A program made the translations under genes and the position numbers. The notes beneath the pieces are model-generated. The model searched no databases, had not been told where the DNA came from, and saw only the letters and a list, made by a program, of their open reading frames with translations. DNA of 32,279 nucleotides, taken from Prevotellaceae bacterium. Lineage in GTDB: Bacteria > Bacteroidota > Bacteroidia > Bacteroidales > UBA932. Of this stretch, positions 9,837 through 24,098 are shown piece after piece (position 1 is the first letter of the stretch; each line of letters opens with the position of its first letter). The stretch spans positions 1 through 32,279 of the forward strand of contig JAITKG010000001.1 in NCBI GenBank assembly GCA_031278495.1, given 5' to 3'.

Positions 9837-11054
9837 TTACCGTAAGGTAAGGTATGCCGACTGCAATAATTCCGCTGTGGCGGCGTTGATTTTCTTCAAT
9901 TCTTTCAAATCAATGCCGGCGTCCCGCCATTTTTCCATACTGTTATAATAATGGTCAAAAACGGCGGCTTCTACCTGCGCCACCTGCTGCATGATGCCGT
10001 CGCCCGACGGGTTGTAGAGGGCGGGAAAGTAAAGGTATTTTTTTTCATTGGCGCGCGTCAGCGGAAATACCTTGCTTTTGAGTGCAAGCGCATGGTCGCA
10101 CAATAGCGCATGGTTGGGAAGTTCGCTTTTGCACAGCATTTCCAGTTGCTGCCCGCCCGCTTTTACCCACATCGGTACGGCGACGCCCACCGGCGGATAA
10201 CCCAAAATCGTCCACACGGTAGTCATCTCGGGGTTTTCGCCCGGCTTCACGCCCTGTATAACCAGTGACGCCGACGATGATTTGCGCGGGATAAAATCAT
10301 GGTCATATACCCAGCCCCGCGCTTCCGGCGACGCAATGCCGCCGTCCAGCAGGTCGATGCCCATCAGCGAGTGGCGGAAAGAACGGGACAAATGACGGAA
10401 AATCCACTGCGGCGTAATGTTCCGGAGGGGCGCTTGTGGCAGGATAATCTCCATCGCCGTATGGTAGCGGATATATCCCATGCCCTCGCCAAACCGACCG
10501 GTATAGGAAAAATTGGTGTACACCAAAAAACCGTTGGGTGCAATTTTCGGGTCGTTCACATCCACTTTCACCCATTGCGTATTGTTGACTTCATAATAGG
10601 CGGCGCCGCCCTGCGCATCAATCACGCCGAAGTTCGCCTCTACCCGCATCGGGCGCGGGTAGCGGTCGAGGAATGCCTCGAACTCTGCCAGCGTGCTGCA
10701 TTCCGACAAGGCTTTATACATCAGTTCGCCTTCCCTGTCCATTTCCTCTATGTCGTCGTCTTTGAGGTTGTACGAGGCGGTGTTCATAATGGAAAACCCC
10801 GTGCTGTTGCTGCCTGTCCATGCCGTGCGACCGGTATCCGAGCTGTTCAGCAGGGCGAGGAATGCGTATTTCCCGGTATGGAAAAAGGCCATCCGGTTAT
10901 TCATATCGTCGGTGTCGCGGTGTTTCCAGAGGAGCGGCCGCCCGTCGGCGGTTACTTTTCCCGTAAAAATAGCCGAAGTACACCCGTAGCCGGCGCCCGC
11001 CGGACTTAACCATGTGCCGGCAATAAGTAAGGTAATGATAAATGCTGGTCTCAT
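9837..11054 (-). CDS. Secreted N-terminal-nucleophile (Cys) hydrolase, peptidase C45/C69/choloylglycine-hydrolase-like
   Basis: 405 aa. Signal peptide MRPAFIITLLIAGTWLSPAGAG, followed by GCTSAIFTGKVTADGRPLLWKHRDTDD. That is the Cys-Thr-Ser ... DG ... D pattern typical of Cys-Ntn amidohydrolases, where the Cys becomes the new N-terminus. Confidence 0.55.
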   Translation of the reverse strand: MRPAFIITLLIAGTWLSPAGAGYGCTSAIFTGKVTADGRPLLWKHRDTDDMNNRMAFFHTGKYAFLALLNSSDTGRTAWTGSNSTGFSIMNTASYNLKDDDIEEMDREGELMYKALSECSTLAEFEAFLDRYPRPMRVEANFGVIDAQGGAAYYEVNNTQWVKVDVNDPKIAPNGFLVYTNFSYTGRFGEGMGYIRYHTAMEIILPQAPLRNITPQWIFRHLSRSFRHSLMGIDLLDGGIASPEARGWVYDHDFIPRKSSSASLVIQGVKPGENPEMTTVWTILGYPPVGVAVPMWVKAGGQQLEMLCKSELPNHALLCDHALALKSKVFPLTRANEKKYLYFPALYNPSGDGIMQQVAQVEAAVFDHYYNSMEKWRDAGIDLKELKKINAATAELLQSAYLTLR

Positions 11055-11205: not shown

Positions 11206-11997
11206 ATGAAAATTACTATTATCGGCGTTGGCAACATCGGCGGCGCCATCCTCGAAGGCACGGTCAGGAAAGGGATTGTAGAACCCGCAAACATTACGGC
11301 GTCCGACCCCCATCCGGATTTTGCGGAAAAATTTATCCGCAAAAACATTATTGCCGGCTATACTGCCGATAATGTCCGCGCCATACAGGGCGCCGATTTG
11401 GTCATCGTAGCCGTAAAACCCTGGTTGGTGGAAAAGGTAATGGGCGAAATTGCCGGCGCGCTTGACCGTGCAAAGCAAGCCGTAGTGTCCATTGCCGCAG
11501 GCGTTACGTTCGACCGGCTTGAGCAGTACCTTTCGGTTGCCGGCTCAGGCGCGGTGGAGCTGTACCGCGTTATCCCCAACACCGCTATTTCCTTAGGACG
11601 GAGCGTATCGTTCATTACGCGGCGCAATACTTCTGCGGCGCACGACGAACAGGTACGCACGCTTTTCGCCGCTCTGGGCGAAATCGTTGACGTAGATGAA
11701 AGCGAGATGACGGCTTGCACCGCCCTTTCTTCGGCGGGCATCGCCTATGCCTTGCGCTACCTCAACGCCGCCATGCAGGGCGGAAAAGCATTGGGCTTGG
11801 ACGGGCAGAAATCATTGCGCATTGTGATGAAAACTATGGACGGCGCGCTGGCGTTGCTCGAAGCCAACGGCAACTGCCCGCAAGCGGAAATCGACAAGGT
11901 AACCACTCCCGGCGGCGTAACCTTGAAAGGACTCGACGCTATGGAAAACGGCGGGTTTACCCGCGCCGTCATCAACGGGCTGCTGGCGACAAAATAG
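11206..11997 (+). CDS. proC: Pyrroline-5-carboxylate reductase
   Basis: 263 aa. MKITIIGVGNIGGAI NAD(P)-binding N-terminus and C-terminal TTPGGVTLKGL motif. TAG at 11995-11997. Confidence 0.9.
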   Translation: MKITIIGVGNIGGAILEGTVRKGIVEPANITASDPHPDFAEKFIRKNIIAGYTADNVRAIQGADLVIVAVKPWLVEKVMGEIAGALDRAKQAVVSIAAGVTFDRLEQYLSVAGSGAVELYRVIPNTAISLGRSVSFITRRNTSAAHDEQVRTLFAALGEIVDVDESEMTACTALSSAGIAYALRYLNAAMQGGKALGLDGQKSLRIVMKTMDGALALLEANGNCPQAEIDKVTTPGGVTLKGLDAMENGGFTRAVINGLLATK

Positions 11998-12052
11998 CCG
12001 GATTCCTTGAAAACAGGAACTCTTTGCCAATTTTTGGCTTAATGGTCAAATA

Positions 12053-12472
12053 TTATTTGAAAAAAGTTTCTTTTTCAACTTTCGAATACAATTTTGAGGA
12101 TCTTAAATTTTCCAAAAGTAATTCCAAATCTTCGGTCAACAATGTTCCTTTGAATTGCGCTGCGCCGCATTCTATTTGTTGCGCAAGTTTTATTTTAGGA
12201 ATTTGCGATAACGCATGACAAGCAATAAAAGAATCATACGATAAAATATCAGGATAGTTTGAATGCTTTATCGGCATTTGCATATCCATGAAATCCGGTC
12301 GCGATTTTACATAGTTATTTATATTCGAATTGATAAAAAAGAACCCTACAAACCCCTGTTCATTTTCGCCTATTATTACAAAAAATTTACCATGATCAAT
12401 ATGATCAAATTCTTCGGCATGCAATAGGACGCCTCGCCTAATTAACGCCTTTGACAATATTGCCGGATTCAT
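12053..12472 (-). CDS. Hypothetical 139-aa protein, candidate toxin/effector partner of the Panacea-like gene
   Basis: ATG at 12470-12472 overlaps the upstream TAA (minus sense TAATG). The ORF-track start at 12508 is a TTG. No family recognised. The pattern G-hhh..(acidic)..HGKFFVIIGE ... FFFINS ... SFIACHALSQIPKIKL ... KGTLLTEDLELLLENL is loosely reminiscent of the MazF/PemK fold. Confidence 0.6.
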   Translation of the reverse strand: MNPAILSKALIRRGVLLHAEEFDHIDHGKFFVIIGENEQGFVGFFFINSNINNYVKSRPDFMDMQMPIKHSNYPDILSYDSFIACHALSQIPKIKLAQQIECGAAQFKGTLLTEDLELLLENLRSSKLYSKVEKETFFK

Positions 12473-13017
12473 TATTGGGAAACGGTTGGTTGTAGCGGGG
12501 TTATCCAATTAAGATAGGAAATATAATCTTCTTTTTCGCCGGCTTCCCGCAACATATTTTCCATAGAAATAGGCGCATCGTCGGACGCCAAAGACCATGC
12601 AATGTCATGTGATTTTTGCCGTATTTCATCCCATGACAGCGTGCCATATTGCGCAATAGCGCTGTCCAACGCTTCAATATCCGATGCCGAAAGAAAATCT
12701 AAATCCGGCGCTTGTTTTGGTTGGATAAAATACCAATCGTGCACATCAAACAATTGAGCATAACGGGTAGCATCCTCTGTAAAAAAACTATCGCCACGTA
12801 CTGCTTTGAAAATATCATAAATTTTAGATGGTACAGGTCCGTCAGCCATTTTAATATACATATCGCCGGTTATAGACCTTCCATATTTTGCCAAGTGGTT
12901 ACGGTCGGCAAAGTAAATAATCTTAAATATTTTATGAAAATCTTTCCGCAATAAACCCTGCGCTACATAAAGGATAACTTGTAGCGATTTATCAAGATTA
13001 AAAATAGAAGTTGGCAT
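12472..13017 (-). CDS. Panacea (DUF4065, SocA/GepA-like) domain protein, candidate antitoxin
   Basis: 181 aa. KSLQVILYVAQGL..FHKIFKIIYFADRNHLAKYGRSITGDMYIKMADGPVPSKIYD matches the DUF4065 hallmark: a conserved K-h-h-Y-F-A segment, then an aromatic, then GPV and Y. ATG at 13015-13017. Confidence 0.65.
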   Translation of the reverse strand: MPTSIFNLDKSLQVILYVAQGLLRKDFHKIFKIIYFADRNHLAKYGRSITGDMYIKMADGPVPSKIYDIFKAVRGDSFFTEDATRYAQLFDVHDWYFIQPKQAPDLDFLSASDIEALDSAIAQYGTLSWDEIRQKSHDIAWSLASDDAPISMENMLREAGEKEDYISYLNWITPLQPTVSQ

Positions 13018-13054
13018 AATTAACTTTGTTTATGGTAAAACATCATTAACACTG

Positions 13055-13062
13055 CAAATATA
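13055..13062 (-). promoter_or_regulatory. Candidate -7 box TATATTTG for the two-gene islet
   Basis: Exact TAnnTTTG on the minus strand, with 37 nt between the box and the ATG at 13017. Confidence 0.4.
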
Positions 13063-13087
13063 TTACAATATTTTATATCTACAAAAT

Positions 13088-15967: not shown

Positions 15968-16128
15968 CAATTGAAAGTTGAAAGTTGAAAGTTGAAAGTT
16001 GAAAGTGGTTGCCGCGCCAGCCTCATCTCCACATTTCCACATCTTCTCATATTCACATCAACTGCCGGCGCCAGCCACATCTTCACATCATCACATCTCC
16101 ACATCTTCACTTCTTCACATTAGCCTGC
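15968..16128 (-). repeat. Tripartite word-repeat element, copy B (inverted relative to copy A)
   Basis: The reverse complement reads GCAGGCTAATGTG-(AAGATGTG-type octamers x5)-GCTGGCGCCGGC-AGTTGATGTG-(octamers x4)-GCTGGCGCGGCAACC-(ACTTTCA x5). Order and linkers match 2691-2832. Confidence 0.85.
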
Positions 16129-20801: not shown

Positions 20802-22703
20802 ATGATTTTCCTGATGTATCTTTTGAAATCGGGCGTGTGTGCAGCTATCCTCTGGGTAGCTTACTACGCGCTGCTGCGCAAGGAAACGCATTTCGCGTTC
20901 AACCGGTTTTATTTACTGTCGGTCATTCCGCTCAGTAGTATTATCCCATGGCTGCGGTTGCCATTGCTGACGCCGGAAGAACCGTTGCCTCTTATAACGA
21001 TAGGAGAAATTTCTGCCGAACCGCTTGCTGCGCCTGCTACGCAAAGTTTTTCGTTTGCCACGCTGTTACTGGTTATTTATTTTTCAGGCGTTGGCTTTGT
21101 AGCTTTCCGTTTTTGCCGGCAGCTATACCGCATGCACCGCGTTATTGCGGCAAGCCGGTTTTCGGATACTAAAAATTATTCGGCGTTTACTTTTTTCAGG
21201 AAAATTTACATCAATAGAAGCACATTATCTGCCGGCGACTACGAGAAAATCCTGTGGCACGAACAGGTGCACGCCCGCCAATTGCACAGCGTGGATCTGG
21301 TTATTGCACAATTGTTTGTGACGCTTCAATGGTTTAACCCGTTTGCATGGTGTTTGAAAAAATCCATCGTTGCCACGCACGAATACCTTGCGGACGCGCA
21401 GGTATTGGCGCACGGCGTCGACGTCAATATATACCAAAAACTTTTATTCCACCAAACCACCGGCGTACATCCGGAATATGCCAATGGTTTCAGTTATTCA
21501 CTTACTAAAAAACGACTAATTATGATGACAAAAAACAACACAGGCAAATTTTTTGCCTTGAAACTATGTTGCATGCTACCCGCCATTGCCTTGCCGGTAG
21601 CCATGTTTGGACTCTCTACGGCGGATGCAAACCCGCCGGTAAATTTTGAAAAAGCAGCTGTTATGACTACGGCAAATGACACGCTTATTACTACATCAAC
21701 CGATAAGGATGCAAAAAGCGACGGTGTAGTTGTGATTACAATGAAATCGGGGGAAGTAATGGCTTTCGGCAGTAACGAACTGTCATCAATGGAAGCGTTA
21801 GCTCCCGACGATATACAGTCGATAACCGTAAGTAAACCCACTTCTGTGAAGACAACGACCGCCCCTTCCGTCGGTACGGGTAAAATCACAGTTGTAATGA
21901 AATCGGGGGAAACACGCGTCTTCGACGAGAATAATATCCAAGATTTGAATGCGTTTGTTACCGGCGATATACAGTCGATAACCATACAAAAGGATACTGT
22001 GGCGACTAAAAAATCAACATCGATTGAATATGTCCATAATGTCGGACAAATAGACGTTAACCCTGAATTTCCCGGCGGGATAGTCGCACTAATGAAGTTT
22101 ATTCAAGACAACCTGAAATACCCCAAAAAAGCAGCCGACAAAAAAACACAAGGTAGGGTAATCGTACAGTTCACGGTTAAGGCTAACGGCAATATTGATG
22201 ATGTAAAAGTGCTGAAAGGCGCCGATGCACTCTTGGACGAAGAAGCGGTGCGCATAGTAAAGACCATGCCGAAATGGAAGCCCGGCGAACATGAGGGGAA
22301 AGCGGTTGCGGTGAACTATCTTTTGCCCGTCATGTTTCAACTCAATAAAGACAAAGAAGCGGAGACAAAATACTTTAAGGTTTACAAGGTTTATCAAACC
22401 GATGCGGTAGATGAACAACCCCAATATCCCGGCGGAATGAACAATCTCATGGATTTTATTAAAGCCAATTTGAAATATCCCCAAGAAGCCGCCAAACAGA
22501 AAATACAAGGTAGGGTAACCGTACAATTTACTGTTAAAGACAATGGTACAATTGATAATGTAACCGTGCTAAAAAGCGTCAACCCGCTGCTGGATGCGGA
22601 AGCAGTGCGTTTGGTAAAATCCATGCCGAAATGGACGCCCGGTAAACATGAAGGGGAAGCGGTAGCTGTGCAATTTATTTTACCGATAACTTTCCGGCTT
22701 TAG
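20802..22703 (+). CDS. BlaR1-like M56 family membrane metallopeptidase fused to two tandem TonB C-terminal domains
   Basis: N-terminal TM segments and the HEQVH zinc motif (ILWHEQVHARQLHSVD, EYLAD). Two ~52-aa linker repeats (MKSGE..GDIQSIT). Two TonB_C-like modules (PEFPGG..GRVIVQFTV..NG.IDDVKVLK.. and PQYPGG..GRVTVQFTV..). Confidence 0.85.
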   Translation: MIFLMYLLKSGVCAAILWVAYYALLRKETHFAFNRFYLLSVIPLSSIIPWLRLPLLTPEEPLPLITIGEISAEPLAAPATQSFSFATLLLVIYFSGVGFVAFRFCRQLYRMHRVIAASRFSDTKNYSAFTFFRKIYINRSTLSAGDYEKILWHEQVHARQLHSVDLVIAQLFVTLQWFNPFAWCLKKSIVATHEYLADAQVLAHGVDVNIYQKLLFHQTTGVHPEYANGFSYSLTKKRLIMMTKNNTGKFFALKLCCMLPAIALPVAMFGLSTADANPPVNFEKAAVMTTANDTLITTSTDKDAKSDGVVVITMKSGEVMAFGSNELSSMEALAPDDIQSITVSKPTSVKTTTAPSVGTGKITVVMKSGETRVFDENNIQDLNAFVTGDIQSITIQKDTVATKKSTSIEYVHNVGQIDVNPEFPGGIVALMKFIQDNLKYPKKAADKKTQGRVIVQFTVKANGNIDDVKVLKGADALLDEEAVRIVKTMPKWKPGEHEGKAVAVNYLLPVMFQLNKDKEAETKYFKVYKVYQTDAVDEQPQYPGGMNNLMDFIKANLKYPQEAAKQKIQGRVTVQFTVKDNGTIDNVTVLKSVNPLLDAEAVRLVKSMPKWTPGKHEGEAVAVQFILPITFRL

Positions 22704-22720
22704 AAAGACAAAGAAGCGGA
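22053..22720 (+). repeat. Tandem 357-nt duplication (TonB C-terminal module), second copy running 17 nt past the stop codon
   Basis: Anchors recur at exactly +357: CCCGGCGG at 22071 and 22428, ATGCCGAAATGGA at 22266 and 22623, AAAGACAAAGAAGCGGA at 22347 and 22704. Confidence 0.85.
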
Positions 22721-22747
22721 AATGGAATAACCGCACGCTGTATGATG

Positions 22748-22783
22748 AAAAACCTGCTTTGATTTTTTTTGAAGCAGGTTTTT
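22748..22783 (+). terminator. Intrinsic terminator after blaR1
   Basis: AAAAACCTGCTT (22748-22759) pairs perfectly with AAGCAGGTTTTT (22772-22783): 12 bp with a 12-nt T-rich loop. The 3' arm ends in T5. Confidence 0.7.
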
Positions 22784-22841
22784 ACCTGTTATTTCGTAAT
22801 TTTATGTATCTTATTATTTGCCATGTCGCTACTGTCTGCAT

Positions 22842-22988
22842 TTGAACGACGCCCACTCAGGAAAAGGAAAATCTATTCAAAAACAATATGGCGTGTCCGG
22901 CGTTCCCACTTGCTTCTTCATATCCCCAGAAGGGCAAGCGCATAAACCAGTGGTTTGTTTATGGTGTATACCTATGGCTATGTGTTAA
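22842..22988 (+). pseudogene. 3' remnant of a thioredoxin-fold (TlpA/ResA/AhpC-like) thiol-disulfide oxidoreductase gene
   Basis: The frame starting at 22881 translates KQYGVSGVPTCFFISPEGQA, matching the conserved C-terminal Y-G-V-x-G-h-P-T-x-F-h-I-x-x-x-G motif of TlpA-like proteins. No CxxC-bearing N-terminal part and no start codon; a stop lies upstream at 22797. Confidence 0.4.
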
Positions 22989-23159
22989 ACCTATGTAATA
23001 AAATTTAGTCAAATCTACTGTCATTATTAGCTACATTGACATACCGGAATAGTTCCGGTAATAATTTTTTTTGTTTAAAATAGCATTTTTTTTTGCGCAA
23101 TTCGGTTTTATTTAGTTACTTTGTAAAATTACTTTATATAGAAATTAGGGATAAAGTGC

Positions 23160-24098
23160 ATGATTATTTGGTATAAAATACTTCCGGCAATAGCCATAAT
23201 GGGATTTGCCAATAAAATTCAAGCACAACAAGACGCTCAATTTAATTTATATTTTATGAACCCAACCTTTATAAATCCGGGGTATGCGGGAAATACGCAA
23301 GAAGAAATGTTTTGCGCATCCGGATATAACCGGTTGGAATTACGAGGTTTTGATGAAGCGCCCGTTTCTACCGTTATAAATGTACATGGACCGGTTAATG
23401 TATTTGGAACACGTGGCGGTATTAGCGTTACGTTGCAGAACGAGATGGCGGGTTTCCTGCGCGCGCCGGGCTTAAATTTCGGCTATGCTTACCACCGGGC
23501 GTTGGGCGCCGGGCAAATAGGAGTAGGTATTTCATTGGGCTTTATCGGCAGTTGGTATGCTAACAATTCCTGGAAACTGCCCGACGGGGGAACCGACCCG
23601 GTGGCGCCAAGCCAGGAAAATGCAGGCGTCGCTTTTGATTTGGGAACGGGAGCGTACTATTCCGATTCCCGTTGGTTTGGCGGATTATCATTCACACATC
23701 TCACCAGCCCTAAATTAGGCGTCGACAATAATGCACGCTACCGTCCGGCGTTGTACGTTATGGGCGGGTTTACATTTTTTGCGGACAGCGCCGCATGGAC
23801 GGTAACGCCCATGTTGACGGTTGTGTCCGACTTTACGCAAACAAGTTACAACATCGCTGGCAATGCGATGTATAATAGGAAATATTGGGTGGGCGCCAGC
23901 TACCGTTGGGGACAGGCTATCGCTATAATGGCTGGACTGGAAGTTTTCAGCGGGCTGAAGGTTGCCTATGCTTACGAATATGCTACATCCCGGCTAAGCC
24001 GCTTCAGCAGCGGCACGCATGAGCTGATGTTAAGTTATTCGTTTGCGGTGAAGGCAGTGCGCGGCACACAACGGTACAAAAGTATAAGATATTTGTAA
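23160..24098 (+). CDS. porP: Type IX secretion system membrane protein, PorP/SprF family
   Basis: 312 aa. Signal peptide, then QQDAQFNLYFMNPTFINPGYAG (the PorP/SprF hallmark). Beta-barrel-like alternating pattern ending in ...SIRYL. Directly upstream of gldK. Confidence 0.85.
   Translation: MIIWYKILPAIAIMGFANKIQAQQDAQFNLYFMNPTFINPGYAGNTQEEMFCASGYNRLELRGFDEAPVSTVINVHGPVNVFGTRGGISVTLQNEMAGFLRAPGLNFGYAYHRALGAGQIGVGISLGFIGSWYANNSWKLPDGGTDPVAPSQENAGVAFDLGTGAYYSDSRWFGGLSFTHLTSPKLGVDNNARYRPALYVMGGFTFFADSAAWTVTPMLTVVSDFTQTSYNIAGNAMYNRKYWVGASYRWGQAIAIMAGLEVFSGLKVAYAYEYATSRLSRFSSGTHELMLSYSFAVKAVRGTQRYKSIRYL

Follow-up and report, generated by a model that had tools for sequence, protein, structure and literature searches.

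A 32,279-nucleotide (nt) stretch of a Prevotellaceae bacterium (NCBI GenBank assembly GCA_031278495.1, contig JAITKG010000001.1, positions 1 to 32,279; hereafter the window) contains an AT-rich islet of 1035 nt that carries two minus-strand genes, which we call panA and panT. We find that panA encodes a Panacea (DUF4065) protein, that the product of panT, in its structure model, has the SH3-like barrel fold of the CcdB/MazF superfamily, and that the two genes stand side by side in nearly all of the related loci examined. The pair is very probably a toxin–antitoxin (TA) module of the published PanAT type with a MazF-fold partner. The explanation as a whole, in which an acquired type II PanA-PanT cassette would act by RNA cleavage and PanA would bind PanT, is one that we consider likely.

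PanA and PanT as a conserved pair

The Pfam model PF13274 (SocA_Panacea) matches PanA with an E-value of 4.6e-24 and a score of 85.9 bits (cut-off 25.7), the match running over residues 30-141 of the protein and positions 1-112 of the 113 in the profile. PanA also matches phrog_1281 (E 1.7e-20). The protein lacks any extra N-terminal domain and is Panacea-only. Its C-terminal tail, residues 142-181, lies outside the Pfam model and is conserved: E158 is present in at least 90% of the sequences and is found, together with Y165, among the conserved tail residues, as judged from alignment A4 and from a set of 60 pairs. A search of the Protein Data Bank (PDB) with the PanA profile found no solved structure that matches it, and at E <= 1 neither PanA nor PanT matches any model of PADLOC-DB v2.

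PanT belongs to a large and anonymous family. A word-indexed search returned 102 clusters, all of them unnamed, and a profile search of 1.84 billion representatives returned 1349 proteins at E <= 1e-3, as counted at 50% clustering, and 456 at E <= 1e-10. Comparison of PanT with the PHROGs gave noise only, and ten distant members of the family likewise matched no Pfam family.

The identity of PanT comes from its predicted structure. An AlphaFold (AF2) model built from 51 homologues has a predicted local distance difference test score of 86.1 and a predicted template modelling (TM) score of 0.79. When this model was compared with the PDB by Foldseek, the six best matches were the MazF proteins of S. 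aureus and B. subtilis (E 4.5e-4 to 1e-2, probability 1.00), with TM scores on the target of 0.58-0.69; the match at E 4.5e-4 has TM scores of 0.52/0.62. In BFVD, PemK-like phage proteins come first (E 1.6e-4, TM 0.60/0.68), and the best four matches are PemK, endoribonuclease or PemK/MazF proteins. By this model PanT is an SH3-like barrel protein of the CcdB/MazF superfamily, with a short helix at the N-terminus and a second helix at the C-terminus that MazF lacks. MazF and the gyrase poison CcdB share this fold.

The sequence profiles point the same way. A profile of 98 PanT members, searched against the PDB up to E 10, gave nine matches, all marginal, of which eight are MazF, PemK or EndoA; the best is S. 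aureus MazF, at E 0.034 and nearly full length. When the PanT alignment A2 was compared by hhalign with a four-sequence MazF/Kid profile, the result was E 0.0026 at a probability of 12% over 102 columns. Three of the four sequences in that mini-profile were verified in full against PDB chains, and the fourth, that of S. aureus MazF, agrees with the partial stretch available for comparison. The agreement between the PanT and MazF profiles is weak but consistent.

The most conserved residues of PanT align at or next to positions of the MazF active site. Over the 98 members, whose mean column identity is 27%, only K29, N48 and S81 are invariant, and at least 90% of the members keep G14, I47, S49 and L77. 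HMMER places K29 on the Arg of the MazF GGVRP motif (R25) and D80-S81 on the DS of KDSVILLEQ, and hhalign places N48 on T48 and D80-S81 on D72-S73, with K29 one residue off R25. R25 and T48 form the catalytic pair of B. subtilis MazF, equivalent to R29 and T52 of the E. coli protein, and S73 contacts the RNA. The conserved core of PanT would thus occupy the place of the MazF active site, with Lys/Asn(/Ser) replacing Arg/Thr. The location of the invariant residues at these aligned positions supports homology and a nucleic-acid-directed activity, but no particular chemistry. Another N-terminal register, obtained at low probability when hhalign aligned A1 with the single B. subtilis MazF sequence, skips strand 3 of MazF; we judge it an artefact because in the PanT model, as in MazF, beta-4 is preceded by three strands.

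A preliminary description of this DNA had assigned the 181-amino-acid product to Panacea/DUF4065, could place the 139-amino-acid product in no named family and called it loosely like a MazF/PemK-type barrel. The HMM search bears out the first assignment, the lack of any Pfam, NCBIfam or PADLOC match agrees with the second, and the barrel likeness proves correct at the level of the fold. The peptide strings that it quoted are present in the translations.

The pairing itself is the second line of evidence. The loci compared are 38 from GTDB species genomes, 30 from IMG/VR viral contigs and seven from metagenomic places. All but one of the GTDB loci, which is labelled Clostridia, lie in Bacteroidales-type metagenome-assembled genomes (MAGs), which include Prevotellaceae, Muribaculaceae, Paludibacteraceae, Alistipes, Odoribacter, Tannerella and others. 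In 73 of the 74 related loci, the 30 viral contigs among them, panT is immediately preceded by the gene of a PanA homologue on its own strand. From panA stop to panT start, the spacing in these 73 pairs is -1 in 31, -4 in 16 and +1 to +4 in 19, with a full range of -26 to +12 nt; 47 pairs overlap by 1 or 4 nt. We therefore see here the architecture by which PanAT pairs are recognised, that is, at most 100 nt between the genes and an arrangement kept in at least two species while the flanks vary. A Panacea gene also precedes two distant PanT members (21-24% identity) and the PanT homologues of two annotated Bacteroidales plasmid records. Wherever a partner was found it is a Panacea protein, and not an antitoxin of the MazE/PemI/Kis type. 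The sole exception to the pairing is a locus (L044, 4143-4469) in which no panA was detected and panT lacks residues 1-28, a truncation that would be expected if intact PanT is not tolerated without PanA.

For 60 distinct pairs, the distance matrices of PanA and PanT correlate with a Mantel r of 0.79, against a maximum of 0.12 in 2000 permutations. PanA and PanT therefore diverge together, without partner swapping inside the clade; this co-divergence indicates joint inheritance only, not a complex.

Several copies of the pair are found in mobile surroundings. One lies beside a CI-type repressor and an integrase (L001), others lie among Rha/ANT/Bro-N/ERF phage early genes (L004-L006), one adjoins an SPP1-type portal gene (L084), and further copies are carried on circular Bacteroides and Parabacteroides records of 51-124 kb. 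In the present window the pair is naked between chromosomal genes. Two of these phage contigs (L004 4779-5600 and L005 5409-6230) also contain, shortly downstream of the first pair, a second and unrelated Panacea pair, made up of a 146-amino-acid PanA of another subfamily and a 125-amino-acid partner. This partner has no Pfam match and does not match the profile of the MazF-fold family.

Relation to known toxin–antitoxin systems

Panacea was named by Kurata et al. 2022 (PMC8832971), who predicted 1268 PanAT pairs in 88 toxin clusters. Their pull-downs show PanA-PanT complexes for the pairs tested, stable and typical of type II systems, and several of their toxin clusters (T5, T6 and T8) are MazF-like by HHpred. 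The T6 pair of P. moraviensis is a validated TA pair whose toxin inhibits protein synthesis, and the T5 representative is matched by HHpred to EndoA/MazF at 99.5%, with CcdB also in the list (PMC8832971).

The family of PanT can be tied, indirectly, to one of these clusters. A tblastn match on a P. distasonis plasmid falls in an annotated pair consisting of WP_005777276.1 ('Panacea domain-containing protein') and WP_005836787.1, and the latter matches the PanT family profiles at E 1.4e-17 and 1.9e-29. WP_005777276.1 is listed in Dataset S1 (PMC8832971) as the PanA of the P. johnsonii T5 pair, whose toxin is WP_007218124.1, and the plasmid pair and the listed pair have the same 5-nt gap between their genes. 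By this route the PanT family would correspond to T5 or at least overlap it. We also considered T1, which contains many Bacteroidales, as the home cluster and set it aside, since its members come from many phyla and the accession evidence leads to T5. Cluster look-ups for an accession link to Dataset S1 returned only MAG accessions or none, and we found no literature on this Bacteroidales PanT subfamily specifically. The islet pair thus appears to be a further member of PanAT, in T5 by inference. The preliminary description had presented it as a candidate new system, and this claim is not supported, since pairs of Panacea with a MazF-fold protein are already published (PMC8832971).

The pair resembles PanAT clusters T5, T6 and T8 in its Panacea-only PanA encoded upstream of a small toxin gene that overlaps or abuts it, in a toxin that has no CDD or Pfam match and yet has the MazF/EndoA fold, and in a patchy, mobile distribution that includes phages. 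It differs from T5 in that the Bacteroidales subfamily shares only ~35% identity with the plasmid homologue through which the link is made and, as far as can be checked, is not in the RefSeq-based set of the paper; moreover, the validated MazF-like pair, that of P. moraviensis, belongs to T6 and not to T5.

With MazEF, PemIK and Kis-Kid (B. subtilis EndoA, S. aureus and E. coli MazF, Kid) the pair has in common the SH3-like barrel predicted for its toxin, invariant residues that align at or next to MazF active-site positions, and a bicistronic layout with the antitoxin gene first and the genes overlapping. Toxins of the MazF/PemK/Kid kind are homodimers that cut single-stranded RNA in a sequence-specific way. 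Unlike these toxins, PanT has no Pfam PemK_toxin match, carries Lys, Asn and Ser instead of the Arg/Thr catalytic pair, and has ~25 extra residues that form its N- and C-terminal helices. The antitoxins differ more deeply: PanA is a globular Panacea protein with no recognisable DNA-binding domain, whereas MazE, PemI and Kis are AbrB- or ribbon-helix-helix-type proteins with a disordered tail.

SocAB, the type VI TA system of Caulobacter, is akin to the pair in the Pfam domain of its antitoxin, SocA_Panacea. PanA lies far below the threshold of the NCBIfam SocA equivalog NF047745 (16.1 bits against a cut-off of 190), SocB belongs to toxin cluster T10 (PMC8832971), and the ClpXP-adaptor mechanism is not indicated for PanA-PanT.

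Locus, promoter and accessory status

Table 1. Positions of the panA-panT genes and associated features in the window
Feature	Coordinates	Strand	Remarks
panA	12472..13017	-	181 amino acids, ATG start; presumed antitoxin
panT	12053..12472	-	139 amino acids from ATG; presumed toxin
TAATG junction	12470..12474	-	CATTA on the + strand; panA TAA and panT ATG share one base
Candidate Bacteroidetes-type -7 box TATATTTG	13055..13062	-	37 nt upstream of panA ATG
Candidate -33 element TTTG	13082..13085	-	19 nt upstream of the -7 box
proC/panT convergent-stop spacer	11998..12052	.	55 nt; left islet edge; small hairpins only

The positions of the two genes and of their TAATG overlap, as given in the preliminary description, agree with the list of open reading frames and with the sequence (Table 1). 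The mechanical list extends panT in the 5' direction to a TTG at 12508; the 139-amino-acid reading is right, because the homologues begin at the ATG, M1 being nearly invariant in alignment A1, and not at the TTG. The overlap suggests that panA and panT are translationally coupled.

The islet stands apart from its surroundings in base composition. Single 60-nt lines contain 14 G+C at 12061-12120, 18 at 12301-12360 and 36 at 11761-11820, exactly as counted by hand in the preliminary description, and at 35.7% GC the islet is the minimum among all 1035-nt windows of the 32 kb, ~3 standard deviations below their mean (49.4%, standard deviation 4.4%). The GC content at third codon positions (GC3) is 0.34 in panA and 0.31 in panT, against 0.54-0.67 in seven neighbouring genes. 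The second-lowest GC stretch, at ~37.7%, lies at window positions 22300-23400, where it takes in the 3' portion of a BlaR1-like/TonB_C gene and the intergenic DNA that precedes porP, with no sign of an additional gene.

On one side the islet is flanked by proC (F420_oxidored plus P5CR_dimer) and on the other by a gene for a TPR/PD40/OmpA protein, followed by radC. The remainder of the window is ordinary Bacteroidota chromosome, with GH9, asd, argG, a hutH-like lyase gene, porP and gldLMN of the type IX secretion system, and GH3. Within the window we found neither phage nor defence-island neighbours of panA-panT, nor an integrase.

Bacteroidetes promoters have a characteristic -33/-7 layout and spacing, and the TTTG and -7 box upstream of panA fit it. 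The -7 box that the preliminary description gave to the pair is present, 37 nt upstream of the panA ATG; what does not stand is any weight of the motif itself, for TAnnTTTG occurs 26 times in the window against 27.4 expected, which is chance level, so that it is position that speaks for the candidate promoter. No clear intrinsic terminator follows panT in the 55-nt spacer (fold z-score -1.9), and no convincing direct or inverted repeats flank the islet as integration scars. A 21-nt direct repeat, identical at 18 of 21 positions, has one copy across the proC stop codon (11988-12008) and the other across the junction of panA stop and panT start (12453-12473). The two copies coincide exactly with the edge of the islet and the boundary between its genes, but the repeat is probably due to chance.

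An independent assembly of the same organism (L007) has the identical arrangement at 99.9% identity. Relatives with ProC 86-89% identical have no pair after proC, which is followed by uppS in one (L048) and by a DPP-IV peptidase gene in another (L049), and a relative with ProC 73% identical has proB there. When four relatives are aligned with the window (68-85% identity), homology at the nucleotide level reaches the proC stop codon (window 11996-12000) and goes no further, and the three contigs that reach far enough (L048, L049 and L051) each have a different gene downstream of proC. The pair is therefore not conserved at this locus, and by these alignments synteny in the lineage breaks repeatedly at the 3' end of proC. 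Among the ProC relatives, what is seen is the absence of the pair and not a precise, clean proC-OmpA empty site; a ProC scan of metagenome contigs returned relatives at ~30% identity only. We regard the islet as a horizontally acquired accessory element, real but fairly ordinary. This agrees with the preliminary description, which had portrayed the pair as a compact, compositionally foreign and coupled module of the TA type: the low GC and GC3 and the conserved pairing bear it out, and the pair is neither universal at the locus, being absent after proC in related genomes, nor host-like in composition.

Other features of this neighbourhood are recorded here in their own right. At 9837-11054 (minus strand) the window encodes a 405-amino-acid protein with a signal-peptide-like N-terminus ending ...GYGCTS and no Pfam match at E <= 1e-5; it is kept upstream of proC in two relatives (L048 and L050) and may be an unannotated secreted or lipoprotein enzyme. 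The intergenic region between radC and a TMEM260-like gene (15971-16110) contains a tandem heptamer, (GAAAGTT)x5, with a series of CACATCT-like repeats after it. Within this region 37 nt are 100% identical to the intergenic sequence upstream of proC in L048 (4608-4644), and in L050 a similar inverted structure of heptamer repeats comes after proC. The relatives seem to share a short repeat element that lies at different intergenic sites. In L049 (676-2709), ~2-4 kb upstream of proC, a reverse transcriptase gene (RVT_1) lies beside a bAvd gene, the signature of a diversity-generating retroelement.

Proposed mechanism, alternatives and meaning

We propose that a Bacteroidetes-type promoter, located in the 70-nt gap ahead of panA, would drive panA and panT as a single operon on the minus strand, with their translation coupled through the TAATG overlap. 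PanT, given its predicted MazF/PemK fold, would most likely cleave RNA and thereby block translation and growth, and PanA would bind PanT directly and hold it inactive, the contact possibly being made by the Panacea core or by the conserved C-terminal tail (E158, Y165). In stand-alone PanAs, neutralisation runs through the Panacea core (PMC10440598). If PanA were lost or inactivated, the toxin would be set free; this might come about when the element is lost or, speculatively, when the Panacea domain senses a phage infection. The toxicity, the RNase activity, the neutralisation through direct binding and the trigger are drawn by analogy from published work on PanAT and MazF. We put the chances slightly above even that the whole chain holds, from RNase activity through arrest of translation to direct neutralisation.

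Several observations weigh against this proposal. At E <= 1 PanT matches nothing in Pfam or NCBIfam, PemK_toxin included, and every link to MazF at the sequence level is marginal, with E-values of 0.03 to 0.003 and hhalign probabilities of 8-29%. The PanT family does not keep the Arg and Thr of MazF catalysis as such but has Lys and Asn/Ser, and the register between PanT and MazF differs by one residue or more between alignment methods. The fold also houses CcdB, so that by itself it leaves the target of PanT unfixed. The assignment to T5 runs through an identical PanA accession and the 5-nt gap, not through a toxin accession. In C. bovis, the source of the only T5 pair tested, PanT is toxic in E. 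coli, PanA is toxic too and neutralisation was not demonstrated, and the MazF-like T8 PanT of F. xanthum is non-toxic in E. coli (Table S1, PMC8832971).

The alternatives concern the role of the pair, the target of PanT, and whether there is a working TA pair at all. It is possible, though we doubt it, that the role is phage defence or superinfection exclusion by a prophage, that is, abortive infection in which the Panacea domain detects some sign of infection and sets the MazF-fold effector free. This reading concerns the role of the pair and does not conflict with the TA mechanism. It draws on the 30 IMG/VR viral contigs that carry the pair and on the metagenomic copies among phage genes (L001, L004-L006 and L084), and it is opposed by the lack of a PADLOC model for PanA or PanT, by flanks that here consist of proC, the OmpA-family gene and radC with no phage or defence neighbours in the window, and by a tblastn search of 50,697 deposited phage genomes in which PanT found no match. 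That PanT is a toxin but no RNase, and instead, say, poisons gyrase as CcdB does or binds some other essential protein, seems unlikely to us. The fold common to MazF and CcdB, the presence of CcdB in the T5 HHpred list, the replacement of the catalytic Arg and Thr in all 98 aligned members, and the N- and C-terminal helices that MazF does not have all leave room for such a target; the top structural matches, however, are all RNase-type MazF or PemK proteins and none is CcdB. CcdB contacts gyrase with its C-terminus, whereas the invariant residues of PanT are at RNase active-site positions and not at the C-terminus. Moreover, the MazF-like PanTs that were tested specifically inhibit protein synthesis (PMC8832971).

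We give still less credence to the view that the pair is no functional TA system here, with PanT either non-toxic or serving PanA as an accessory or regulatory partner, and with the cassette a mere hitch-hiking remnant. Several predicted PanTs, among them the MazF-like one of F. xanthum in T8, are indeed non-toxic in E. coli (PMC8832971), and the failure to demonstrate neutralisation for the C. bovis T5 pair points in the same direction. Against it, both reading frames are intact and under clear constraint over 61 distinct homologues with invariant residues, the start-stop coupling is conserved, and the lone copy without PanA (L044) has a truncated PanT. It is highly improbable that the pair works like SocAB, with PanA as a proteolytic adaptor that delivers PanT to ClpXP and does not sequester it: the Pfam family is named after SocA and there is a weak NCBIfam SocA match, but that match is far short of its cut-off, SocB is in T10 and not in T5, and the PanAT pairs studied form stable complexes like those of type II systems (PMC8832971). 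As a bolder conjecture, to which we attach little probability, K29-N48-S81, which replace the Arg/Thr of MazF, might mark a branch of the MazF fold that is dedicated to PanA and differs in substrate or chemistry; the module, enriched in Bacteroidales prophages, would then act as an abortive-infection switch triggered by phage, with Panacea as the sensor.

Read as an acquired PanA-PanT cassette, the islet adds an uncharacterised Bacteroidales example to PanAT, in which a hyperpromiscuous antitoxin domain is combined with many toxin folds. The PanT family is large, tied to PanA in nearly all loci examined, and common in gut and rumen Bacteroidales and their phages and prophages. Because no Pfam, NCBIfam or PADLOC model exists for it, annotation pipelines call its members 'hypothetical', and a curated PanT model would annotate many genes at once. 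The altered residues, finally, raise the question of whether a MazF active site that carries Lys and Asn is still competent for catalysis.

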